64,000 bases of DNA from a virus (Duplodnaviria > Heunggongvirae > Uroviricota > Caudoviricetes > Ackermannviridae). Positions 8,354 to 56,894 of this stretch are shown in pieces. The stretch's first letter is position 1. Every line of letters begins with the position of its first letter. Where the stretch lies: positions 40,721 to 104,720 of the IMG/VR virus record IMGVR_UViG_2974499353_000001, one strand, 5' to 3'. A model generated the notes under the pieces. That model saw only the letters and a list, made by a program, of their open reading frames with translations, was not told the origin of the DNA and searched no databases. Position numbers and translations under genes: made by a program.

Positions 8354-8587
8354 TTATGCTCCTATTACGTGCTGTTTGGCTTGTTCATAGGCTGTGCGGA
8401 GTTCAAGATAAGAATCTGCCAACAACGGTGATTTGTCGTTTTTCCGATTCATGATTATTTGGTGGTTAACGACAGCACGGCGTAATCTGAGTTCTGCCAC
8501 CCAGAATGCTTTTTGTTTTGCGTGTCCTGGACGGGCGCGTAGGTCGTGATAATGCATAGAAGCATGATATATTTCAGAGTTGGTCAT
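8354..8587 (-). CDS. Hypothetical small protein (about 77 aa). Real start at the ATG preceded by the conserved leader TTGAATAGCAGGAACTATATC.
   Basis: The track start is a TTG inside the conserved leader. An early-promoter cassette lies upstream. Confidence 0.45.
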   Translation of the reverse strand: MTNSEIYHASMHYHDLRARPGHAKQKAFWVAELRLRRAVVNHQIIMNRKNDKSPLLADSYLELRTAYEQAKQHVIGA

Positions 8588-8624
8588 GATATAGTTCCTG
8601 CTATTCAATTTGTGGCGTTTGCCA

Positions 8625-21365: not shown

Positions 21366-21641
21366 TTAACGACGGAAAGGACGGTTAGCGTTTTCGCGGT
21401 TAGACCAATTCTTTTCAGCCTGGGTAAGCGCCGCAGGACTCCATTCGCGTTCCCACTCTTTGTCGACTTCGGCTTGGTTGGCGGGTTCAACAATTTCAAC
21501 GCCAGGGAAATCACGTGCCATAATTTCACGTAATTGTTCAGAAGGAGCAGTTTGAGCGTGTACTAATTCTTCGCCGTTATAAACCTTGGCCATGAGCCAT
21601 TTACTGCCGTAACGAATATATGCGTCGAGGATGATTTTCAT
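21366..21641 (-). CDS. Hypothetical small protein (about 91 aa)
   Basis: Start ATG preceded by the conserved leader TTGAAAAGCAGGAACTATATT. Early cassette upstream. Confidence 0.5.
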   Translation of the reverse strand: MKIILDAYIRYGSKWLMAKVYNGEELVHAQTAPSEQLREIMARDFPGVEIVEPANQAEVDKEWEREWSPAALTQAEKNWSNRENANRPFRR

Positions 21642-21689
21642 AATATAGTTCCTGCTTTTCAAGTTGGTGTCGTACTGCTTATGTTTAGA

Positions 21690-37110: not shown

Positions 37111-37566
37111 TCAGAATTGGAATGATTGTTTCATAACGCTCACCATGTATGATGGATCTACTGGTGTTCTGTTATACGTGATCTTGCCCATGCCATTCAG
37201 ACGTTCGACAATGCGCTCGGCATTCTCTTCTACTGCGGTCTGGGTCGGTTGGTAATCGTTCAAATAGATCGCGAGTTCCTGTCGATTGTCGGACGTCACC
37301 TGATTGCGGAGCGAAGGATAGTTGACAACATACCCACGAGAAATCAGTTCGGCAACAAGCTGATCGTAGCGCTCGATCAGATAAATGAGTTTGTCGCGGA
37401 AGAACAGCACATGACCTTCGTTGAGTTTGTACTGCTTTGGAGCGCCCTTGAGATTACGGCGTTTTCCATTCACCACGTTAAGGACAACAGGCGCAAGTTC
37501 TTTGTACTCGGCAAGGAGGTGTTGGTCGCAAAGAGATTCAACGGGAATAACATTGATACGGGTCAT
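37111..37566 (-). CDS. denV: Endonuclease V (pyrimidine-dimer DNA glycosylase/AP lyase, DenV)
   Basis: MTRINVIPVESLCDQHLLAEYKELAPV...NGKR...GHVLFFRDKL is similar to T4 DenV ([27 protein letters not shown]). Start moved to MTRIN with SD AGGAAC. Confidence 0.85.
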   Translation of the reverse strand: MTRINVIPVESLCDQHLLAEYKELAPVVLNVVNGKRRNLKGAPKQYKLNEGHVLFFRDKLIYLIERYDQLVAELISRGYVVNYPSLRNQVTSDNRQELAIYLNDYQPTQTAVEENAERIVERLNGMGKITYNRTPVDPSYMVSVMKQSFQF

Positions 37567-37625
37567 GGTATAGTTCCTGCATTTCAAATAGACGGGGTAA
37601 TCATACCCCGCCATAATTTATAGAA

Positions 37626-37865
37626 TTAATTGATATGCTTCAGAAGAGCGAAAAGAATATTCGCCTTGGCTTTAACCTTACCGACGACACCCGTTTCGGC
37701 ATCAACCTCTTCAGCAACCCATACTTTTCCTTTCTTGCTAATGATAACATCTCGGCGCGAAGCATAGACTTCCTTAGTCATGTACACACGGCGGAATCCT
37801 TTAGCGCGGAGCAAGCCCCAATTGCGGTCTATTTCTACTGCCGTTTCTACTTTCTTGTTTGACAT
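37626..37865 (-). CDS. Hypothetical protein (79 aa)
   Basis: ORF track. Early promoter cassette upstream. Confidence 0.45.
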   Translation of the reverse strand: MSNKKVETAVEIDRNWGLLRAKGFRRVYMTKEVYASRRDVIISKKGKVWVAEEVDAETGVVGKVKAKANILFALLKHIN

Positions 37866-37894
37866 GTTATAATCAACCTATTCAATTTCTGACC

Positions 37895-37960
37895 AACCCC
37901 ACGTTAGCCAGTTATTGAATAATACGGCAAATGTTTATTCAAGTAAAGCCTTTGAAAGTA
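37895..37960 (-). promoter_or_regulatory. Terminator hairpin TCCCCAATAATTATTGGGGA plus an early promoter (CTTTAC, TTGAATAAA spacer, TATTAT)
   Basis: Minus-strand reading: GCTTTACTTGAATAAACATTTGCCG TATTAT. Confidence 0.5.
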
Positions 37961-37996
37961 AAAATCCCCAATAATTATTGGGGATTTCATGGATTA

Positions 37997-38314
37997 TTAT
38001 TTGCAGAGAACAACGACGAGTTCAGCTAACTCTCCGAGGGTAGGATCATCTCCATGTTTACCCACCCACTCGTCACTAATTTCTACATCGTACTCTTCTT
38101 CGATTTCCATGACCAGCTCAATCATGTCAAGATCGTCACCACCGAGATCATTCTTAACCCGTAACGGCGCTAAAGCATCGATATTATCATCAATGTTATC
38201 AAACTTGTCCTTGTGATCCCCGTTGCGCCAGGTTTCCATGTTCAGGTTGTCACAAGCGTACTGAGCCAGAACACGCATTACTTCAACATAAGTTGGTTTG
38301 TTTGACATAAGCAT
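37997..38314 (-). CDS. Acyl-carrier-protein-like protein with the phosphopantetheine-attachment Ser replaced by Asp
   Basis: DLGGDDLDMIELVMEIEEEYDVEISDE versus E. coli AcpP [27 protein letters not shown]. N-terminal extension of about 35 aa. Confidence 0.65.
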   Translation of the reverse strand: MLMSNKPTYVEVMRVLAQYACDNLNMETWRNGDHKDKFDNIDDNIDALAPLRVKNDLGGDDLDMIELVMEIEEEYDVEISDEWVGKHGDDPTLGELAELVVVLCK

Positions 38315-38327
38315 ATCTCAAAATGAA

Positions 38328-38343
38328 GGCGGGTTTCCCCGCC
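38328..38343 (-). terminator. Terminator GGCGGGTTTCCCCGCC after the vWA gene
   Basis: Hairpin immediately downstream of the stop codon. Confidence 0.55.
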
Positions 38344-38351
38344 AGTTGAAT

Positions 38352-40568
38352 TTAGATTTTGACTTCTTTTTCAGCCAGTTCGGCAGTGACGGTGTATTTC
38401 ACCCCATCAACTTCCACATCCATAGTGGATTCTTCCAAATCCAGGTCGGTAAACCAACCATGGCCTGCAACAATCCCATAAACTACCTTGGACAGCGTTT
38501 TGTTCAGGGCGCGGACTTCGTTAATGGCCGCTTTTGCTGCGTCTCCGATCCAGCTTTCAATCAGCTTTTTCTGAGTCTCTTCCGGTACGCTGGTGATCAT
38601 CGGCGATTTAACAAATGCATTGTATTCAGCCAGGGCATTAGCGATCAGCTGATCAGCGACATTCAGTTTTTTACCGTCCGTCTGTTTTTTGATAACAGAC
38701 GCGATGCTCGGCAGTGAAGATGCGCCTTTGATTTTCACATTCAATTCACGACTCATATAGACATCGGTTGATTCTACAGAAGAAGTCTTCGGTGAAAATC
38801 CATAGTCGCGAATTCCGTTTGCTGACAGGAAATCAGCTGCTTCTTTGCCATATTTTGAAGCCAGACCAGTAGCGTTGCCTTTACCAACCAGTTCATCACG
38901 GTAGAATTTCAGAACTTTCTGTTTTGCCTTCAATGCTTCACGGCGCACATTGTCTGCAAAGAATTCAGCAGCACTGATATTCTTTGTCATGGCGCGGTTA
39001 ACCATTGGGACACTTTCCAGATTTACAATGAAGACTTCCGGTCCACCAAACACATGAACACCCATGGCAGTCAAATCCTGTGCCACCTTAGCCCGAACAA
39101 TCGGAGAATCTGCAGTGATAGGCATTGTTTTCAGGTTGATGATACCATCCTTGACAATGGTGTAATTGCGATAACGCCAGGTCCCCAGCTCTTCAGGAAG
39201 TTCATATTTCTTCTGTACAAACTCAGGCACAACAACCGTTCCGTGTTGAACTGTCTGCACACTGATGTTAGGACGTTCTGAATTGTAGACCAAATTGCTG
39301 ATCGGGACAATCCCTTTATCATCTGCTGGATTGAATTCGGGGGTCCAATCTTCGTGCTCGGCCAGTTTGAGCGCCAGGGCTTTACGCTCTTCTTTAGAAG
39401 TCGCATTCGCAATCTCTTCGGCCAACTTGTCTTCGGTGTCATCAACTTTCTGTACAGTACCGCGCCCAATGCTCTTGTAAGAGAATAGCGGATGCTTGGT
39501 GACGATAGAGACATCGGCTTCGGCCAGGTAGGTCAAAACATCAACAATGGTCGTTGCATCTTCAGCCGGAACCATATTATAATCGATGCCATCAACTCCT
39601 CGCAGAGATTCGTCTACGATAGCCTGAGTCAGATCGACTTTGATGTTGGAATAGTCCTGCTTGGTGAAACAGTTGCTGTACTGTTTGATGAAGCGGACGT
39701 CACCCGTCTTCTTCAGCGCGGCCCAGACCAGATCGGCGTCCATGGTATACACGCCGTAAAATGCCAGCACGTATGCCGCTTGGATGTCTGCCAGATTATC
39801 CAGCTGGTCGATCATGTTGGGGTTTACAACCCACAGCTGAGAAACGCTTTCAGGGATGCTGACGTGGCCAATAGGGTGCTCTTCATCAGGATGCACAGCT
39901 AAAACAGTCGCCACGCCATTTTCAACATAAATGGCATGGGTATAAACCAGAGGAACATCGACTACAACTTTCGGTGAAGAAGTTTTCAGCACGTTTTCCA
40001 ATTCGGTCTGATATTCATTCTGGCCTTCGGCGAATACGTGGGTCGCACCAGAACGTTCTGCCATTAGCGCCAGCAGTTCGCGATTACAATACCAACCGTA
40101 TTCGATGAAGGTAATGTTATCAAACGCTTTGGGCAGTACTTCAGCGGCATCCAGGATTTCATTAGAACGCCAGCAGTTGTCATATCCGTCGGTCATGAAT
40201 GCCAGGTTGTTAACATAACCAGGTTTATTCAGGCTAATGGCAGTTTCCGCAGCCAGTTTCAGCGGCTCAACAAAACCAGTACAACCAGAAGGCTTCAGGA
40301 AACGGTCAATTAGATTATTGATCTCACTGAGGTCGGTTGCACTGTTAATCTGACGTCCGGCAAATACCGTTCCGAAATCACCGCGAGATGAAAAGTAAAG
40401 GATGCTCACAGTATCTTCCGGTTTCACCAGGGAAGGCAGGTTCTCCTTCAGATGCTTACGGACTTCTGGAAGTGAACGATACATGGAACCGGAGATATCC
40501 ACAACGATTACATGGTTAGACGGCGCGACGGTCGCAACCGCATTCTTAAATGTTAATGATTCAATCAT
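38352..40568 (-). CDS. Large von Willebrand factor A (vWA) domain protein (about 738 aa)
   Basis: MIDAS motif VIVVDISGSMYRS, with downstream TDG and D residues. Start at MIESL overlaps the upstream small gene (ATGATTGA). The C-terminal 500 aa are unassigned. Confidence 0.7.
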   Translation of the reverse strand: MIESLTFKNAVATVAPSNHVIVVDISGSMYRSLPEVRKHLKENLPSLVKPEDTVSILYFSSRGDFGTVFAGRQINSATDLSEINNLIDRFLKPSGCTGFVEPLKLAAETAISLNKPGYVNNLAFMTDGYDNCWRSNEILDAAEVLPKAFDNITFIEYGWYCNRELLALMAERSGATHVFAEGQNEYQTELENVLKTSSPKVVVDVPLVYTHAIYVENGVATVLAVHPDEEHPIGHVSIPESVSQLWVVNPNMIDQLDNLADIQAAYVLAFYGVYTMDADLVWAALKKTGDVRFIKQYSNCFTKQDYSNIKVDLTQAIVDESLRGVDGIDYNMVPAEDATTIVDVLTYLAEADVSIVTKHPLFSYKSIGRGTVQKVDDTEDKLAEEIANATSKEERKALALKLAEHEDWTPEFNPADDKGIVPISNLVYNSERPNISVQTVQHGTVVVPEFVQKKYELPEELGTWRYRNYTIVKDGIINLKTMPITADSPIVRAKVAQDLTAMGVHVFGGPEVFIVNLESVPMVNRAMTKNISAAEFFADNVRREALKAKQKVLKFYRDELVGKGNATGLASKYGKEAADFLSANGIRDYGFSPKTSSVESTDVYMSRELNVKIKGASSLPSIASVIKKQTDGKKLNVADQLIANALAEYNAFVKSPMITSVPEETQKKLIESWIGDAAKAAINEVRALNKTLSKVVYGIVAGHGWFTDLDLEESTMDVEVDGVKYTVTAELAEKEVKI

Positions 40569-40737
40569 CGTTTTGACCTTTTTGGGCTTTGGAGTGTTTG
40601 GAGTTCGCGTCGGCGTTCTCCAGCATAGTTTCAATGAAATCCCGGTTGTTTTCCATTTGGGCGACCAGAACATCACTGGGACGGAATGAATTGTCAAGAC
40701 AATCAAGTCCGGCGCGTTTTAATTTGTTGTCGGTCAT
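40561..40737 (-). CDS. Small acidic protein (about 58 aa), translationally coupled to the vWA gene
   Basis: ATG with SD GAGAG. The track start is a TTG. Confidence 0.4.
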   Translation of the reverse strand: MTDNKLKRAGLDCLDNSFRPSDVLVAQMENNRDFIETMLENADANSKHSKAQKGQNDD

Positions 40738-40774
40738 CAGGCTCTCGTGAGTTATATTTCCCAACTATTTCAAC

Positions 40775-40825
40775 ATGGGACTATTATATTACGACAGGCG
40801 GTATTGATGCCAATTAATATAATAA
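40775..40825 (-). promoter_or_regulatory. Sigma70-like promoter TTGGCA, 16-nt spacer, TAATAT(AAT)
   Basis: Read on the minus strand, downstream of the terminator hairpin at 40825..40854. Confidence 0.45.
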
Positions 40826-40854
40826 AAATGCCCGATTGAATATAACCGGGCATT
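40825..40854 (-). terminator. Terminator AATGCCCGATTGAATATAACCGGGCATT
   Basis: Hairpin plus T run after the 40888 gene. Confidence 0.55.
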
Positions 40855-40887
40855 ATATTATTGACAGGTTGAAATATTATTCAGAGC

Positions 40888-41760
40888 TTATTTAAAGGAG
40901 TCTACAATGGATTTGAAAATATAATCTTTGGAGCGTTGTTGTACCGGGAGTTCTCCATACGGAACCATGCAAGGGTGTTGCTTGGTCTGAGGGTCTTTGA
41001 CTGGGCCATACACCCATCCCTCAGCCTCCTTCTCCGCCATCCAGCTCTCATGCGATTCGCTGGGCTTACGATCACCAGTGAGATGGAAGATAACACCTTT
41101 GCAAGCGCTCTCACGCTGCCAGGCCGGAGATTGTTCCCAAGGCAGTTGAGAGTCGTCACCAACAGACTTGCAGTATGCGCGGTTGGCTTCATGACAAATC
41201 TTGGCGATGCGCAGAACCAATGGCGAATAAGTGAGATCGAGTTTGGAGTTGGCGCGCAGGAAATCACTAACAGCCTTACGAGATTTGGCGTTGTGAGAGT
41301 CAACAACAAGTTCCATGTCATCCGGCCCACAAACGAAAGACGCCAAGAAGCGCTCGCCATTTTCCGCTCTGAACATCACGTCCTGAATCATCACATTGAA
41401 GCCGAGGTGATAGGCCGGGCAGAGGGCGCTACGTTCAACAGCGTATTGATCGATCCGGATCTCTGCCGTTTCCGTGGCTTTGGCCAACAGATCTTGTTCA
41501 ACAAGCGCCCGGTACGCCTCCAGCTGCCACAGCTGGTCGAAGGTGTTATTGTAGGAAATCTCTTTGCCCAGGGCTTCATCGAAGTTGGCCGGGTCTATGG
41601 ATGTGCTGGGCTTGGTGCCGTGAACGACGAAGCCGTTATCCATCTTGAAATGACAAGTGATAGCCCGGTGACCGCCGACTTCGCGGTCTTCGTAAATCAC
41701 CTCAGCGATATGTGACTTCAGGACTTCAGGAGTGAGTTTGATGCCAGTACGAGTTGTCAT
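40888..41760 (-). CDS. Protein with a C-terminal RyR (ryanodine-receptor repeat) domain
   Basis: HESWMAEKEAEGWVYGPVKDPQTKQHPCMVPYGELP versus RyR HELWA..EQGWTYGPVRDD.K..HPCLV.F..LP. Confidence 0.6.
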   Translation of the reverse strand: MTTRTGIKLTPEVLKSHIAEVIYEDREVGGHRAITCHFKMDNGFVVHGTKPSTSIDPANFDEALGKEISYNNTFDQLWQLEAYRALVEQDLLAKATETAEIRIDQYAVERSALCPAYHLGFNVMIQDVMFRAENGERFLASFVCGPDDMELVVDSHNAKSRKAVSDFLRANSKLDLTYSPLVLRIAKICHEANRAYCKSVGDDSQLPWEQSPAWQRESACKGVIFHLTGDRKPSESHESWMAEKEAEGWVYGPVKDPQTKQHPCMVPYGELPVQQRSKDYIFKSIVDSFK

Positions 41761-41768
41761 GTGTTATC

Positions 41769-42143
41769 CTATGATATTTGTTTACAGACCTCCACTACTT
41801 TACGGCACATGACGATATCGAACAAGCCGATATGGCAATCGCGCTTCTTGATCCCCAGATTATGAGCCAGCCAGCTGTAAGCATCACTCCTGCTCCTCTG
41901 CCCACTTTTCCAGATAGGGTCAAACGACCTATGAGCTTCCTGCTTAGCAGCACGGAGAGCGGCATTCGCCATCCTTCCCAGAGGTTGTCTACCATCCCCA
42001 TGGGTATGGCAACCCACACGAGCGTCGCATGGCGAGCATACCCAGAACTTCAGTTTGTGTAGATCTGGGCGATGAGGGTAGAGTACATCACCACTGACGT
42101 ATTTGGCAGGAAGGCCGCAGTAATCACAGATGACAGGTTTCAT
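41769..42143 (-). CDS. Zinc-finger protein (DUF3268-like)
   Basis: CDYCGLPAKYVSG...YPHRPDL...FWVCSPCDARVGCH. Confidence 0.5.
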   Translation of the reverse strand: MKPVICDYCGLPAKYVSGDVLYPHRPDLHKLKFWVCSPCDARVGCHTHGDGRQPLGRMANAALRAAKQEAHRSFDPIWKSGQRSRSDAYSWLAHNLGIKKRDCHIGLFDIVMCRKVVEVCKQIS

Positions 42144-42158
42144 ATTCTTTGTCCAAAA

Positions 42159-42181
42159 GAAACCCCGCACACGGCGGGGTT
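42159..42181 (-). terminator. Terminator AACCCCGCACACGGCGGGGTT
   Basis: Hairpin plus T run. Confidence 0.55.
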
Positions 42182-42202
42182 GCTTAGGCCGAGGCCGACA
42201 GA

Positions 42203-42574
42203 TTATTTCAGGAGTTTTTCCAGTTCTTCAACAGAGAGACCTTCCAGTTCCTGCTGTTTCTTACGCTGGATCAGTTCCATGATCGCCTGGTTATTCGCTT
42301 TACGTTCGGCGGCGGTTGCGCTTTCGTCACGTTCTTTCAGTTTGACACCGATGATCGCTTTCACGATATCGAAACGCAGTTGTAACTGAGAGTCGACTGC
42401 GCTTTTCACGCCGATGAAATCTTCTTCATCGCTGGCGGCTTCCTTCACCTGACGGCTGAGGTCTTTCGCCAGTTCGTTTAGGGCATTCAGGTTCAGATCC
42501 CAAACCTGCTCAACAGACAGCAGACCTTTGTTAGAGTTGAAACGCAGTTTTAAACGGGTTGCTTGATCAAACAT
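42203..42574 (-). CDS. Hypothetical helical protein (123 aa)
   Basis: ORF track. Predicted coiled coil. Confidence 0.45.
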   Translation of the reverse strand: MFDQATRLKLRFNSNKGLLSVEQVWDLNLNALNELAKDLSRQVKEAASDEEDFIGVKSAVDSQLQLRFDIVKAIIGVKLKERDESATAAERKANNQAIMELIQRKKQQELEGLSVEELEKLLK

Positions 42575-42612
42575 TTCATTGTTCCTTATTACGAATTTGT
42601 GGTCAAAATCAA

Positions 42613-44631
42613 TTAGAAAATGACTTTTACAGTACGGTTAAACGCGCCGGACACTTTGACGAACACGTGGTTGCGTTGCGTCGTCGAGAATCCCAGACCG
42701 GACAGTTGGTTTTCATTCGGCTGGACTTTCATTTTACTACCCAACATTTCAAAAACCTTACGATGTTTATCCAGTTCTGGCTTCAGATATTCGTTGTAGA
42801 AACCACGAGTACCTTCAGGATTAGCACAGCCTTCAAGAATGAAGAACACATGCTTGTTACCAGTTTGCTCCCCATCCCAATGGTTTGGTGAATTCAGGAC
42901 CAGCTGTACTTTCTGGAAGGTCGCAGTCTTGATACCCCAAACTTCTTTAGACTTATCAACATTAGCCAGTTCGGACTTAATGCCAACAACTTGTTTGTCT
43001 TTAACAGTCAGGATGACTGCAGTGATACGCCCCTGATCTTTCAGGCCAGGATGGCTGAAACGATGCGTTGCGCCTTTGTATTCTACTTCGACTTCAAACC
43101 CTTCGTCGATTTTTTCACGTTGATTGTAGTTGTGGATTTCGAAACGGTATTCACCATCGCGCAGCTTGCTTTCATCTGTAAAGATGATATTTTCCACCGG
43201 GGCGCGGTTTGGATCAATACCATCCATACCGTTCATATCGATATCCAGATGGGCACCTGTCATAGAGCGGCGATCACGGAAGTAAACGTGCTCCATGTTG
43301 TTGAACATATGCAGATCGAGGTCGTCGTTGTTGTGCCACGCCAAGGAAACGCGCAGATACCCGTCAACTTTACCACCAGCAGCCTTTACACGTTCTTTAA
43401 TGGAATCGGTCACTTCACCGTTGTAAGACCAGGAGAAACCGTTGTTCCACTTGAACAGGTTAGGCGCATCTGGGTTCGCCGGAGCAACCAGGGACATCAG
43501 GTTGCTAGTATGAGAATTCTCTACAAGCACTTCCATTGAATGCGCTTTTGGCAGAACATTGCTCAGGAAATCATCAACGCTGATCTCTTCAACTTTTTCC
43601 AGGGATTTGGTCGGAGTTTTCACTTCGGCGGCCAGCTGTGCAAACGGATCCATCGCTTTCTGAGCGGCCAGATCTGCGAACAGAACGTTGTTGATTGTCA
43701 GATCATCGTAAACCGCATAACGACGCGCCAGTGAGTCTTCCAAACCCAGAGCAATAACTTCTTTCTGAGCGTTTTCGATCATGGATTTTGAAACCAGCGC
43801 TGTCGGACGTTTGTAGTTCGCCGGAGCAACTTTGGATTCAAACGATTTAACAGCCTTTTCCAGTTCCACGCCTTCGCTGATATCTGTCAGCAGAGTGCCG
43901 ATAACTGTGTTGCGGATGCCGTGTGGAACATGATTGTTTGAACGGTATCCAGTATGCCATGCCCAAAGAGAACGGGCTGATTCGGGGACTTGTTCATATG
44001 CCTTTTTGGTTTCAACAAATCCCTTCACTGCTGCTTTGTGTTCTGCGCCGCGATACAGAGAATTCTGGTCAATCAGTTCCAGAACGATTTCAGCTGATTC
44101 CAGAGTAATTTCACGCAGACCGCGTTCAAACAATTCAATAGCCTGGCGGATTTCACCTTTTTTCGAAGCGATTGCGTCCGGACGCAGAACATAACTACCA
44201 AGTAATTGGGTATGGAAATGATTGTAAGTACGGATTTTGCCATCTTCACCAGATTCGTGATTGTGAGACAGGCCGACTTTGGCAGAATCGTTAAAATAAA
44301 CATCGACGATTGCGTGTTGTTTGACATACGCGGAAAGAGCCGCAGCCACCACGTCATATTCATTACCCAGATCAATGTTGTCCCAGATAGAAATTACGTT
44401 CAGTTCTGAATCGATGGTGACAACACCGCCGATGTTACGGATGAATTGTTTACAGCAGGTGCAATCGTGTTCAGTACGTTCGCGGTACAGCGGGTTAGTA
44501 CCAGCAGGGAAAGATGCCAGATACAGATCCCAAAGAGCATCTTTATCGATATTGGTCATGAACAGACCAGTTGCGGACATCGCCAGCACGTTGTTATTAA
44601 CTGCCGTTGCGAAGGGTTTGAATTCTGCCAT
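42613..44631 (-). CDS. Large orphan protein (672 aa)
   Basis: Long clean ORF with SD AGGAAG. CTCC cysteine motif near the N-terminus. No recognisable catalytic motif. Confidence 0.65.
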   Translation of the reverse strand: MAEFKPFATAVNNNVLAMSATGLFMTNIDKDALWDLYLASFPAGTNPLYRERTEHDCTCCKQFIRNIGGVVTIDSELNVISIWDNIDLGNEYDVVAAALSAYVKQHAIVDVYFNDSAKVGLSHNHESGEDGKIRTYNHFHTQLLGSYVLRPDAIASKKGEIRQAIELFERGLREITLESAEIVLELIDQNSLYRGAEHKAAVKGFVETKKAYEQVPESARSLWAWHTGYRSNNHVPHGIRNTVIGTLLTDISEGVELEKAVKSFESKVAPANYKRPTALVSKSMIENAQKEVIALGLEDSLARRYAVYDDLTINNVLFADLAAQKAMDPFAQLAAEVKTPTKSLEKVEEISVDDFLSNVLPKAHSMEVLVENSHTSNLMSLVAPANPDAPNLFKWNNGFSWSYNGEVTDSIKERVKAAGGKVDGYLRVSLAWHNNDDLDLHMFNNMEHVYFRDRRSMTGAHLDIDMNGMDGIDPNRAPVENIIFTDESKLRDGEYRFEIHNYNQREKIDEGFEVEVEYKGATHRFSHPGLKDQGRITAVILTVKDKQVVGIKSELANVDKSKEVWGIKTATFQKVQLVLNSPNHWDGEQTGNKHVFFILEGCANPEGTRGFYNEYLKPELDKHRKVFEMLGSKMKVQPNENQLSGLGFSTTQRNHVFVKVSGAFNRTVKVIF

Positions 44632-44660
44632 GGTATAGTCTTCCTGTTTCAGTTCAAAGT

Positions 44661-44685
44661 GAGCGCCCTTATCGGGGCGCGTCGT
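44661..44685 (-). terminator. Hairpin GAGCGCCCTTATCGGGGCGC
   Basis: GC-rich stem between convergent or contiguous genes. Confidence 0.45.
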
Positions 44686-44727
44686 TAAAGTGAGGTCAAT
44701 ATACGCTGAAAAGATTTATTGAAAAGT

Positions 44728-45135
44728 TTAAACGGGAATCATGTTTACTCGAATACTTCTGAACCGTTTCCCGTCATAACTGGTGTAACCAACAACCGTA
44801 ACTGATCTTGTTCCCTTTGGATAACCCTTTGGAGTACTCACAACGCGCACAGGGCGCTTGCTTTCTTTATCGTATTTCGAAATCAATTTCAAAAGATGTT
44901 TATCGATCTGGCTTAAACTATCACCATACACGGTATATTGATATTGCTCGCAATTACCCAACAAAATGATAAATTTATAAATTTTGTCGACCAAAGATCG
45001 ACATTTTGGATCATCATAATGATGCCGACAGACTTGACATTCATATTTCCCAGTATTCATGTTGAACAATTTTGTTGCCCGACTTGAACACGCTGGGCAT
45101 ACTTTCCATGAACGATGATGTTTTACGGGTTTCAT
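44728..45135 (-). CDS. Zinc-ribbon protein (135 aa)
   Basis: CPACS...CQVCRHH motif. Confidence 0.45.
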   Translation of the reverse strand: MKPVKHHRSWKVCPACSSRATKLFNMNTGKYECQVCRHHYDDPKCRSLVDKIYKFIILLGNCEQYQYTVYGDSLSQIDKHLLKLISKYDKESKRPVRVVSTPKGYPKGTRSVTVVGYTSYDGKRFRSIRVNMIPV

Positions 45136-46358
45136 TTTTTCATCTTCTCTAACAGATTAATAGAACGAACGGGAGTCTTCTGTAATGGCTGATTAACTTC
45201 ACCACCATTATACCCCACCTTTCCTCGAGGTTTCTCCCCGCGCATCACCGCCTCAACGCAGCGGGTATATTTCTGAAGTTCACAGAACATGTTCTCCAAC
45301 TGCATAACATTCATGCAACGGTCTTCCGGTTCTTCTGCCGACCAAAATTCATTACGTTTATACCCGTACTGAGCGAACAATTGATCTTGATGATCACGAA
45401 CCCAGAATATGCATTCTTCATGCGTCATGCCGTCCTTGTCCAAAAATAACAGATCGATACCAGCACGGCAACCTGGACCAGCGATAGTGAAGTGGTTTTC
45501 ACTGAATGGATATTCATCGATGTATGTAAAATCAACCCAAATCTGGTATGCCAAGAATGGTCCAAGCCCCTCAATGTCGTCATACATCGCCTGGTAAACA
45601 GAGTCGGGACGGCTAAATTCCCTGAGGCGATCAAAGTAATGAGGGTGTTTGTTGACGAATGCCTTCAAAGATCGGATGACTCGCATCGGCATGTATGGTT
45701 CCCAGCCTTCTATTTTGTATTCACCAGGATTATCTTCGGCCAGCTTCTTGGCAACCTTGTAATCCATTTCATCTATAACACCGCCAACCCGATGGACTTT
45801 TACCTTCATGCCGCCAAAGCGTTGCTCCTTGTGGTTGACAACTAGTTCAGGGAAAGCCAGGCATTGTTTCAGACCGCCTGTATTAAACGCATTGGTGAAA
45901 ACTTTGCCACCTTTAGATTCGAATTCCTGAAGAACATCTCGACACCATTCAAGATTTATGTTTCCGAATTCTTCGATCGTCCATGGACCACCCAAAGCCT
46001 GTATAGGTTCCCACATGTTGTACATGCGGAACAATACACAGTTGAACATTTTGTCAGATAGCGTGAGATCCTGATCGAGGATGATATTATTGATCAAATT
46101 TCGAGACTGCCTATCGTGCTCTCTCCGCACGTTACAAAACTTGACTTGGCGTAATACCGGATTATCCGTCCATGGCGCTGGAAGGCATTGCACGTCCTTC
46201 TTGACATGTATCGCATAACGATCCCTCATCCATTCATATGCCAGCTGGCGGTGGAATGAACTTAACATAGGATGGGCTGATTTGATTTTGGTTTCACGGA
46301 CACCGCAATATGGGATGTCATGTGGTTTATCTTTCATGGTATCCTCTCTAGAATACAA
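45132..46358 (-). CDS. Orphan protein (408 aa)
   Basis: Clean ORF. Cys/His-rich. No motif assigned. Confidence 0.55.
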   Translation of the reverse strand: MYSREDTMKDKPHDIPYCGVRETKIKSAHPMLSSFHRQLAYEWMRDRYAIHVKKDVQCLPAPWTDNPVLRQVKFCNVRREHDRQSRNLINNIILDQDLTLSDKMFNCVLFRMYNMWEPIQALGGPWTIEEFGNINLEWCRDVLQEFESKGGKVFTNAFNTGGLKQCLAFPELVVNHKEQRFGGMKVKVHRVGGVIDEMDYKVAKKLAEDNPGEYKIEGWEPYMPMRVIRSLKAFVNKHPHYFDRLREFSRPDSVYQAMYDDIEGLGPFLAYQIWVDFTYIDEYPFSENHFTIAGPGCRAGIDLLFLDKDGMTHEECIFWVRDHQDQLFAQYGYKRNEFWSAEEPEDRCMNVMQLENMFCELQKYTRCVEAVMRGEKPRGKVGYNGGEVNQPLQKTPVRSINLLEKMKK

Positions 46359-46406
46359 AAACAGAGGCCATTATAGCCTCTGTTGTTTAGTGAATAACGG
46401 ATTATA

Positions 46407-47270
46407 TTAATCGAAGCGAGAGAGGTGTGTCACAGTGTTTTGAACAGGTGCGCACGCGTATACACGAACATTAGCACCCCACACCCCACACAGCTTAGGC
46501 ATATTGGTATCGTTAATGATATACGCTGGCACATAACTTTCAATTTGGCCGTTAACATCTACGGGTCGAGAAGATTTTTCAACTGCCATAGAAAGAATTA
46601 CTTCCAACGTTTTTGGAGATACCAACGCCACGCCGTTCATATCATCAACAAATACCTGACCTTCTTCAATTGCCATGCTGGCAACGATGTCATTGATCTG
46701 ACGGGAAGGGGTATTCGTCAGCATATCAGAGAAATCAGGCTCTTTGAACACAGCCATGTTTTTCAGGAATTTTCCTTTCGGATATTCTTTGCCATTCCAC
46801 ATCACAGTCTCATTCACTTTGATGCATGCCTGAGGGAATTCACCTTCAACGCGTAACTGGCCATCTGGGAAACCGCGTGAATAATAATATTCCAGTGCCG
46901 GACCGACTTCATCTTCTGAGCGAATAAATTTGCTCATGTTAGAGGCAAACACACGTTGTAAACATTCATCACCATTAAAACCAGCGATATGGGCCACGCC
47001 GTCATTAACAGTTGTGATATCACCCTGAGCGTCCATGATGGCTTTCAGGATTTTATCCATATCAACATCATCGGTGTCTTCTTTTGGAGTTGCCACCAGC
47101 TCAAGTTTGATGTCATGATCGAAATAAGCCGCTTCCAGTAATTCGCGGGTCTCTTCCAGAACCAGTTTGGCCTGATTGCGAATTTTACCGAAGTCAGGGG
47201 CTGTAATATCTCCAGCCGCATTACCAAAAGCCAAATTCAATCTCACGTTTTTATTAAATGTAGTTGTCAT
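46407..47270 (-). CDS. Protein with an N-terminal MazG-like NTP-pyrophosphohydrolase motif fused to an unknown C-terminal domain
   Basis: KLVLEETRELLEA followed by KAIMDAQGDI resembles the EExxE...D pattern. Weak assignment. Confidence 0.4.
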   Translation of the reverse strand: MTTTFNKNVRLNLAFGNAAGDITAPDFGKIRNQAKLVLEETRELLEAAYFDHDIKLELVATPKEDTDDVDMDKILKAIMDAQGDITTVNDGVAHIAGFNGDECLQRVFASNMSKFIRSEDEVGPALEYYYSRGFPDGQLRVEGEFPQACIKVNETVMWNGKEYPKGKFLKNMAVFKEPDFSDMLTNTPSRQINDIVASMAIEEGQVFVDDMNGVALVSPKTLEVILSMAVEKSSRPVDVNGQIESYVPAYIINDTNMPKLCGVWGANVRVYACAPVQNTVTHLSRFD

Positions 47271-47286
47271 AATATAGCGACTCCAG

Positions 47287-47751
47287 TTATTCGCTTTTTG
47301 CCCGACTTGGGCGAATAGTGTATTTTGGAACCAATTTCCACTCAGAAACTTGGTCATGTTTTACAACTTTGATCCGAGACATGTCAGCCACTTCGGTTAT
47401 TTGTTCCGGATGCAAGATCTTAACCATATTCCATTGCTCCAGAAGCCGTATAATCCGATTCATACGCAGGACATCTTCACGCGTAAAGCCGTTGTAGTGC
47501 CCATCTAGCATGAACAAATGCTTGAAATGCACGATGTGATATCTGCCAAATTTATGCAGGATATGGCACGTTTGATACAAGGTGTTAGGCTCTTGACGAG
47601 TGTTAACCCCTATCCGACTCAGCGTTTCCTTGATACCCAGGAAAATCCCTGGTTTGTCTTGGTTCAATTGAACTTCAACCATACAGTCAACAATGCTGGC
47701 CTCATCGTTGACAGCTGAAAGTTTTAAGATGTCCAGCGTATTACGCGCCAT
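47287..47751 (-). CDS. regA: Translational repressor RegA
   Basis: LYQTCHILHKFGRYHIVHFKHLFMLDG and EWKLVPKYTI are similar to T4 RegA. Confidence 0.85.
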   Translation of the reverse strand: MARNTLDILKLSAVNDEASIVDCMVEVQLNQDKPGIFLGIKETLSRIGVNTRQEPNTLYQTCHILHKFGRYHIVHFKHLFMLDGHYNGFTREDVLRMNRIIRLLEQWNMVKILHPEQITEVADMSRIKVVKHDQVSEWKLVPKYTIRPSRAKSE

Positions 47752-56385: not shown

Positions 56386-56850
56386 TTACAGATCTTGGCA
56401 CTGATCGCAATATTCGTCGTATGTGAATGTCTCATCACACAGGCCGTCACGCATCATATCGGCCTTGGCTTCGCCAAACATTTTCAGGGTGATAACGTTG
56501 CCGTCTAAATCTTTACGAAGTTCGTTCGGCTTGGTTTCTATGAAGTCGAACACCACAAAGAACCCTTCGGTGACATATTTGATGGTTTTGTTGCTCAGCT
56601 TACGGATGCCACCGTTCTTTTTGAAGATAGAGGTGCGGAGGTTTTCGAATTCAGCCAGGTTGTCATCGTGATTCTTGATAGCGTTCAGCATTGCGTCAAG
56701 GTCGATTTCAGGACGAAGCATTTTGACCTGATCTTCGCGGTCATAAGAAGTGAAAGATTCTATGTTGGTGATGCCCAGAGCGTTTTTAACAAACGCGTCA
56801 AATTTGGTGAAATTGTTGAATGCCCAGACGGAGATTTTTACGGTTGTCAT
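56386..56850 (-). CDS. Hypothetical protein (154 aa)
   Basis: Conserved leader CTGAAATGAAGGAACTACATC-ATG. Early cassette upstream. Confidence 0.5.
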   Translation of the reverse strand: MTTVKISVWAFNNFTKFDAFVKNALGITNIESFTSYDREDQVKMLRPEIDLDAMLNAIKNHDDNLAEFENLRTSIFKKNGGIRKLSNKTIKYVTEGFFVVFDFIETKPNELRKDLDGNVITLKMFGEAKADMMRDGLCDETFTYDEYCDQCQDL

Positions 56851-56894
56851 GATGTAGTTCCTTCATTTCAGAGTCAGTGTTGTGCTGCTTATGG

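Follow-up and report, generated by a model that had tools for sequence, protein, structure and literature searches.

Introduction

In phage T4, the DNA polymerase gene 43 follows regA in the cluster 45-44-62-regA-43. Here we describe what lies after regA in a 64,000-nucleotide stretch of DNA (the window) from a virus of the Ackermannviridae, positions 40,721 to 104,720 of IMG/VR record IMGVR_UViG_2974499353_000001. The order and orientation of 45-44-62-regA are the same as in T4, and regA is followed by a block of about 10 kb, positions 37600-47290 of the window. A first-pass annotation of this DNA had taken the block for an orphan gene set and for a good candidate to encode one undescribed multi-gene function, either host takeover or counter-defence. 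From our analysis it is probably a plastic accessory region instead, made of at least five separately bounded modules with differing histories, which are united by descent and not by function.

Several described systems offer points of comparison for single genes of the block. In phage ViI, the hypermodified nucleoside 5-(2-aminoethoxy)methyl-2'-deoxyuridine (5-NeOmdU) was rebuilt with five lysates, those of gp67, gp160, gp226, gp243 and gp247, and gp160 is listed in Table 3 of the same study (PMC5889632). A later study gave the kinase step to gp67/gp243, the serine:DNA transferase step to gp247 and the decarboxylase step to gp226, and none to gp160 (PMC8989533). In Bacillus phage SP10 a kinase and a PPlase1 domain are fused (Table 3, PMC5889632). 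Among phage pyrophosphatases, gp18 of phage 15599 is a dTTPase/dUTPase of a 5-hydroxymethyluracil (hmU) phage (PMC13458397), and Atd1 is a phage MazG-like (p)ppGpp pyrophosphatase (bioRxiv 10.1101/2022.06.09.495361). The RyDEP family consists of anti-Thoeris proteins that bind or cleave cyclic ADP-ribose (cADPR); the gene of its member from phage DyoEdafos lies within a NARP1 operon, and homolog H7 binds as a nanomolar sponge and is active in vivo against type I Thoeris (bioRxiv 10.64898/2026.05.28.727677).

Results

The region between regA and denV

The entire block is 100% identical by megablast to Salmonella phage S118 (MH370371; Kuttervirus, Ackermannviridae), and window positions correspond to positions of that record minus 40720. 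The S118 annotation places gp45-gp44-gp62 upstream of regA, an order that the first-pass annotation had read correctly, and eleven minus-strand genes between regA and denV; every gene listed in the first pass was found, on the minus strand and where it had been placed. The block is bounded by:

47287..47751, minus strand: regA-like translational repressor (T4 RegA-like, PF01818, in the S118 annotation), last gene of 45-44-62-regA and upstream boundary
37111..37566, minus strand: denV-like endonuclease V, annotated in S118 and ViI, downstream boundary

The term orphan does not suit these genes, since the block has matches in 275 phage records, which in 135 cases extend over at least 80% of its length, and all ten genes that were scanned against PHROG fall into its families. 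Six genes carry Pfam domains; the eleventh gene, a 58-amino-acid (aa) open reading frame (ORF), was scanned against Pfam only. The NCBIfam and PADLOC scans of the block proteins returned nothing informative, and no PDB chain was a usable sequence match for the 672-aa, vWA, 408-aa or MazG-like protein.

Across the genera of the Ackermannviridae the order of the block is kept, apart from its variable genes and a loss in Dickeya phage LIMEstone1, while regA is 57-100% identical across the loci compared. A kept order within the family fits shared descent.

Distribution of the block genes outside the Ackermannviridae

Loci outside the family were collected with two genes of the block as seeds, the first of which adjoins a smaller gene:

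42613..44631, minus strand: DUF8224 (PF26675) protein of 672 aa, large subunit of a two-gene module with a wide distribution
42203..42574, minus strand: 123-aa DUF8224 partner (phrog_2018), adjoining DUF8224
38352..40568, minus strand: vWA protein of 738 aa; its vWA domain (Pfam VWA, 3.5e-07, above cut-off) is N-terminal, has an intact metal ion-dependent adhesion site (MIDAS) and is followed by an uncharacterised C-terminal region of about 500 aa

At 64 IMG/VR loci seeded by DUF8224, the 123-aa protein was the sole accompanying block gene. It was detected by tblastn in 59 of them, nearly always directly downstream (upstream in two), and clustering found a partner-family ORF in the same position in three of the five loci that tblastn missed, so that the pair is present in 59-62 of the 64. 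None of the other neighbours recurs in more than 10 of these loci; those that do recur look like replication genes (primase-helicase, ligase, DNA polymerase I) when read by eye, with no family search. A scan of bacteria and metagenome-assembled genomes (MAGs) yielded 80 further DUF8224 loci, with the partner directly downstream in 79. The vWA gene, in turn, is accompanied by no other block gene in 54 of 55 seeded loci, the single exception having the DUF8224-partner pair upstream at a distance of about 5-7 kb, and it is likewise alone in JC221 and Thanatos-1.

Because the genes are scattered and not co-conserved outside the family, an outcome that the first-pass annotation itself had named as a refutation, the reading of the block as one multi-gene function is not supported, and the comparison of synteny and co-occurrence that the first-pass annotation had proposed comes out divided: the order holds within the Ackermannviridae, whereas elsewhere just the DUF8224-partner pair travels. 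We therefore regard it as very improbable that some ten genes form a single undescribed host-takeover or counter-defence system. Such a system would be consistent with the order shared by the Ackermannviridae loci that were compared (the vWA-seeded set has 21 of them), which include Taipeivirus, phiMAM1-like and Bue1-like phages, and with the presence of at least one probable counter-defence protein, the RyR protein described below. Besides the separate distribution of the DUF8224 pair and of vWA, however, the four to five terminator-like hairpins that divide the block and the variable presence of its members even between close relatives speak against it. A false lead is thereby removed, as there is no hidden 10-kb system after regA.

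The DUF8224 protein and its partner

The DUF8224 protein was unmatched in our local Pfam copy, and its assignment to PF26675 comes from precomputed annotation. The family is very large, with more than 7,500 homologs, 4,493 clusters at 50% identity and 559 cultured-phage records. Unrelated large phages that carry the module number in the hundreds, among them Ackermannviridae, CR3/BIS47-type, phiCbK-like, N4-like and Bacillus phages and a cyanophage; the cultured phages, which include Microcystis LMM01 and Cellulophaga phages, usually match at 40-52% over the full length. Identity is 40-50% when the proteins of phages of Salmonella, Bacillus and Caulobacter and that of Actinoplanes are compared. 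The bacterial loci are mostly from Micromonosporaceae, where orthologs are 82-93% identical across genera, and others are from Myxococcota, Bradyrhizobium and MAGs. One Actinoplanes copy, next to an insertion sequence, has an ordinary chromosomal setting, and one copy in Rhodoferax is part of a prophage. In the bacterial contigs (L169-L248) the pair is chromosomal in many Micromonosporaceae, in Myxococcota and in Bradyrhizobium, with no conservation of the genes around it; some of these proteins bear the NCBI name 'YfaP family protein'.

In a structure model of the 672-aa protein a TerD-like domain with the TerD fold is predicted, and the N-terminal 350 residues of the model match no solved structure. 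A Foldseek search of the model against the PDB gave no match with E <0.04, and 32 members of the family searched against Pfam at E 5 gave no TerD match, only scattered weak ones, with DUF2135 in 4 of the 32. No ter-operon context was seen among the DUF8224 neighbours in phage or bacterial loci. Compared with the calcium-binding beta-sandwich domains of TerD and DUF2135 (YfaP), the predicted DUF8224 version differs in being embedded in a 670-aa cytoplasmic protein without a TerD Pfam match. A reading of the C-terminal GNKH...RGFYNE motifs as an ADP-ribosyltransferase was rejected, as His and Glu are about 20 residues apart and thus too close together for an H-Y-E fold. The homologs of Shigella phage Gloob and Klebsiella phage BIS47 are annotated as 'DNA-directed RNA polymerase', a name for which this analysis found no support.

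The literature searched holds no mention of DUF8224 or PF26675 and no functional study of the PHROG families or of the ViI loci. The pair would act as an autonomous unit, in which the DUF8224 protein may be a non-structural metal-binding enzyme or sensor and the 123-aa protein a small regulatory or adaptor subunit, with a target common to very different hosts. That it represents a new two-component module with an undescribed host-manipulation or immune-related activity is a tentative suggestion, which we find plausible rather than probable. The pair is a well-defined experimental target and, for a phage gene pair of no known function, comparatively widespread and conserved.

The gene is not intact in every record. 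In Dickeya phage LIMEstone1 (L099 8043-8855) loss affects both genes of the pair, with residues 1-268 left of DUF8224 and no partner, and two other Dickeya phage records, XF4 and phiDP23.1, have short DUF8224 fragments too. The annotation of the ViI reference NC_015296 (L002 20301-22320) divides it between Vi01_128c and Vi01_129c, two ORFs that share the note orf00158, and the gene of phage 38 likewise matches in two pieces; each split may be either a frameshift or a sequencing error. These broken copies, together with a vWA gene that one Taipeivirus record has in two parts, would fit a block of functionless ORFs left as decaying filler after the polymerase gene had moved. Conservation refutes that reading, to which we give next to no weight: the ORFs are intact over hundreds of records, DUF8224 keeps the identity given above across distant phages and Actinoplanes, the MIDAS residues of the vWA protein are invariant, and proteins of the RyDEP family have demonstrated activity (bioRxiv 10.64898/2026.05.28.727677).

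The MazG-like and gp160-like genes

The block begins, directly after regA, with two genes that point to nucleotide metabolism:

46407..47270, minus strand: 287-aa putative MazG-like NTP pyrophosphatase, extended at the C-terminus by about 100 aa; orthologous to ViI orf161; phrog_2144 and phrog_671
45132..46337(46358), minus strand: HMUDK_hel (aG/PT-PPlase1) protein of 401/408 aa; Pfam PF18723, 1.7e-83; ortholog of ViI gp160

The first of these had been called a MazG-fusion protein. Its MazG-like label comes from strong matches to PHROG families named MazG-like or nucleotide pyrophosphohydrolase (phrog_2144 'MazG-like pyrophosphatase', 6.9e-136; phrog_671, 7e-19); Pfam, NCBIfam and PDB sequence searches gave no match. 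The protein contains LEETRELLEA and DAQGD, which resemble acidic motifs when read by eye, and phages of the phiMAM1 and Bue1 types align to its residues 1-184 only. By analogy it could be a dTTPase/dUTPase, as in phage 15599, or a (p)ppGpp hydrolase like Atd1. It shares with these enzymes the annotation as MazG-like, and either activity would suit its neighbours; it differs from them in having no Pfam MazG match, the likeness being one of annotation and not of sequence comparison. S118 also has a separate dUTPase_2 gene that adjoins its dUMP hydroxymethylase gene.

The 408-aa protein is identified by 78% identity and by synteny with Vi01_130c, noted orf00160, as the ortholog of ViI gp160 and thus as part of the thymidine-hypermodification toolkit of ViI and CBA120. 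It has no significant similarity to the S118 amino acid:DNA transferase (ADDT) paralog by BLASTP. The remaining ViI pathway genes are found elsewhere in S118: HMUDK_HMUD1, which adjoins a thymidylate-synthase-like gene, and HMUD2, ADDT and a PALP (pyridoxal phosphate, PLP) enzyme, which lie near the polymerase gene. Since SP10 fuses a kinase with the PPlase1 domain, there is a hint that the helical HMUDK_hel protein assists the stand-alone 5-hydroxymethyl-2'-deoxyuridine (5-hmdU) DNA kinase. The two genes together would form a first module, serving nucleotide-pool control and post-replicative thymidine hypermodification.

A module of this kind raises the possibility that the whole block is an extended island of nucleotide metabolism and hypermodification, in which DUF8224, vWA and the ACP-like protein would be further 5-NeOmdU enzymes or carriers. 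Its start with the MazG-like gene and the gp160 ortholog, and the replication-like genes often seen near DUF8224 elsewhere (assigned by reading clusters), are in its favour. We nevertheless consider it quite improbable. Of the five ViI proteins that sufficed for 5-NeOmdU in lysates (PMC5889632), gp160 alone has its gene in the block, the other four being encoded elsewhere in S118, and the purified kinase, gp247 and gp226 cover every chemical step (PMC8989533). Moreover, in none of the 64 non-family loci, whose phages belong to diverse groups, is an HMUDK_hel homolog found 10 kb or less from DUF8224. In addition, DUF8224 occurs in bacterial chromosomes too, and the ACP-like protein has no carrier serine. 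We accordingly keep to the accessory region of separate modules, of which the hypermodification-related genes are one.

The RyR cassette

Counter-defence, the function that the first-pass annotation had guessed for the block as a whole, is supported for one cassette of it:

41769..42143, minus strand: DUF3268 zinc-finger protein (Pfam PF11672, 5.3e-38), first gene of the variable cassette, missing in some relatives
40888..41760, minus strand: N4-gp49-like plus RyR (R12) protein of 290 aa (Pfam PF13876 and PF02026, above cut-off), RyDEP family

The RyR domain (PF02026, 41.3 bits against a cut-off of 27.4) covers residues 235-279. The S118 protein is identical to RyDEP homolog H6 at 289 of 290 residues, with an identical cloned R12 domain; it is 60% identical to H7 and 36% identical to the DyoEdafos RyDEP (gp78) over 88 aa (E 8e-15). 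The active-site residues H75, W78, H100 and D117 of the latter have H, W, H and D as their equivalents in S118, so that the R12 domain and the equivalents of catalytic H75 and D117 are shared. The S118 protein differs from the founder of the family in its additional N4-gp49-like N-terminal domain. As none of the homologs H1-H8 cleaved cADPR (bioRxiv 10.64898/2026.05.28.727677), the S118 protein is probably a binder and not a glycosidase, and we predict that it is most likely an anti-Thoeris sponge of 2'/3'cADPR.

The allele with the RyR domain is carried by S118, Marshall and others, while ViI, Mutine, Menlow and phiMAM1 have alleles without the RyR core. NARP1 (Adps and Namat) carries out NAD+ reconstitution, and genes of this type, a Prs-like and NAMPT-like pair as annotated, are found in the corresponding region of maane, Menlow and others. 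In maane the pair adjoins the RyR gene, as in DyoEdafos. The S118 block, by contrast, has no Prs-like or NAMPT-like gene by review of ORFs, Pfam matches and annotation; a link to NARP1 characterises the founder of the RyDEP family but does not define its members. Several relatives have homing endonucleases in the region. A NARP1-type pair in the same region of relatives marks it as a counter-defence slot, and this, together with the single residue that separates the protein from H6, is what upholds the counter-defence guess for the RyR cassette; nothing comparable extends it to the remaining block. DUF3268 and RyR would thus form an exchangeable counter-defence cassette, in which RyR sequesters the Thoeris signals and whose slot may hold NARP1-type NAD+ reconstitution genes or homing endonucleases instead or in addition. 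Two block genes are now assigned to published pathways. Kuttervirus phages used for Salmonella biocontrol are not alike in this slot: whether a phage carries a predicted anti-Thoeris RyR cassette or genes of the NARP1 type may influence its host range.

A Taipeivirus-type locus (L024 12504-14079, against window 40561-42143) has DUF3268, RyR and orf118 genes that are 89-98% identical to those of S118, whereas identity is 59-72% for the genes that flank them (DUF8224, its partner and the ACP-like gene). This difference indicates, at the sequence level, a recent exchange of DUF3268-RyR-orf118 between Kuttervirus and Taipeivirus.

The vWA and ACP-fold proteins

Two genes accompany the vWA gene towards either side:

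40561..40737, minus strand: 58-aa ORF (orf118) that overlaps the start of the vWA gene; from the S118 annotation, weakly conserved in relatives
37997..38308, minus strand: ACP-fold protein (Pfam PP-binding PF00550, 30.7 bits against a cut-off of 20.8)

What had been described as a vWA pair is a single 738-aa protein with one vWA domain, preceded by the 58-aa ORF. In 24 homologs the MIDAS residues D24-x-S26-x-S28, T97 and D127 are invariant or nearly so, and 504 phage records have the protein, T4-like Slopekvirus and Karamvirus included. It is probably a metal-dependent protein binder, and as such would make up a fourth module.

The ACP-like (acyl carrier protein) gene product scores under the cut-offs of the NCBIfam ACP models. 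In the reference motif of E. coli AcpP, LGADSLD, the serine is the site of phosphopantetheine attachment. All 16 distinct Ackermannviridae homologs have this serine replaced, in the motif LGGD-D/E-LD, by Asp in Kuttervirus and by Glu in Agtrevirus, Taipeivirus and phiMAM1. Because of this replacement the protein cannot be a carrier; unable to hold phosphopantetheine, it is possibly an ACP mimic, and would stand as a fifth module. In virion proteomics of the close relative Sajous1, DUF8224 and its partner were undetected and a single ACP spectrum was all that was found of the block proteins, which on this evidence are not virion proteins.

Transcription signals and the limits of the modules

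The internal promoters and terminators that the first-pass annotation had ascribed to the block are partly borne out. Hairpins with a following T-run lie in four gaps, and one promoter belongs to the 79-aa gene at the downstream end:

46360..46384, minus strand: terminator-like hairpin in the gap between the MazG-like and gp160-like genes; 11-bp stem, then a T-run; a Menlow terminator is annotated in the same gap
42161..42181, minus strand: terminator-like hairpin after the 123-aa gene, ahead of DUF3268; 8-bp stem with 6 GC pairs, then a T-run
40827..40854, minus strand: terminator-like hairpin after the RyR gene, ahead of orf118; 11-bp stem, then a T-run
38328..38343, minus strand: terminator-like hairpin after the vWA gene, ahead of the ACP-like gene; 6 GC pairs, then a T-run; a Menlow terminator is annotated there
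37947-37919, minus strand: sigma70-like promoter of the 79-aa gene, TTTACT-17-TATTAT

A fifth hairpin, AAATCCCCAATAATTATTGGGGATTTTT, was read by eye after the ACP-like gene and ahead of the 79-aa gene. In Menlow, terminators are annotated in the two gaps that correspond to MazG|gp160-like and vWA|ACP. The excess over shuffled sequence is modest, with 19 terminators against 12.4±4.1 and 33 promoters against 21.7±5.1, and the hairpins are therefore plausible, not proven, as module borders. Copies of the T4 late-promoter motif TATAAATA number 2 in the window against 1.97 expected, which is no enrichment, and neither copy is in the block.

Several points weigh against a division into independent modules or against the roles proposed for them. 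The gp160-like gene and the DUF8224 pair lie within one terminator-bounded stretch, which runs from the gp160-like to the 123-aa gene and is closed by the hairpin at 42161..42181, and a literature search for an Ackermannviridae transcriptome found none. The order that is so strongly conserved across Ackermannviridae genera leaves room for a family-specific functional link between the modules. The functions proposed for the MazG-like, DUF8224, partner, vWA, ACP-like, DUF3268, zinc-ribbon and 79-aa proteins are predicted from sequence. As to the two published pathways, the authors of the reconstitution left it open which of the five ViI proteins, gp160 included, are necessary (PMC5889632); of H1-H8, six of eight bound the signals, and which six is given only in a figure of the preprint (bioRxiv 10.64898/2026.05.28.727677).

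Location of the DNA polymerase gene

The first-pass annotation had also reported that no polymerase motif occurs in the window. This holds, as six-frame searches of the window for DxxSLYP, SLYP, GDTDS and DTDS gave no match and no polymerase is annotated in the stretches of the S118 record that cover it. The strict motifs on which the report had relied, DxxSLYPS and YGDTDS, would nevertheless have missed the polymerase of S118 itself, because it reads DLNSLYPH and AGDTDS. That gene, a gp43-like family-B polymerase, is at record positions 144957-147953 on the plus strand, about 57 kb from regA (record 88007-88471).

In the same part of the S118 record (MH370371 144957-152346, outside the window) the polymerase gene lies a few genes upstream of HMUD2 (5-hmdU DNA kinase 2) and ADDT, and the PLP enzyme gene is also near it. 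Gene 43 of the Ackermannviridae therefore belongs to a DNA-modification module and not to the clamp-loader module, and this is why it is missing after regA. Whereas T4 has gene 43 directly after regA, S118 has it far off, on the other strand, beside hypermodification genes.

Other features

Two small genes complete the block:

44728..45135, minus strand: 135-aa zinc-ribbon protein (weak Zn-ribbon Pfam matches; phrog_16119)
37626..37865, minus strand: 79-aa protein (phrog_804) with its own sigma70-like promoter and a hairpin terminator ahead

In the locus comparison the zinc-ribbon gene is variable, being missing in ViI, Menlow and others.

Kuttervirus sequence is also present in records that bear the names Enterococcus phage Efm 3-10 and Pseudomonas phage Pa-sanjiao, with protein matches of 98-99.9% and one short DNA match of 88% identity; these records are probably mislabelled or contaminated.

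An element of about 29 nt, CAAATTGAATAGCAGGAACTATATC-ATG on the minus strand, is present at 8584-8612, 21638-21666, 37563-37591 and 56847-56875 in copies that are 72-100% identical. Its end coincides with the start codon of orf75, orf90, denV and orf140, all on the minus strand, and it may represent a shared leader or a translational operator.

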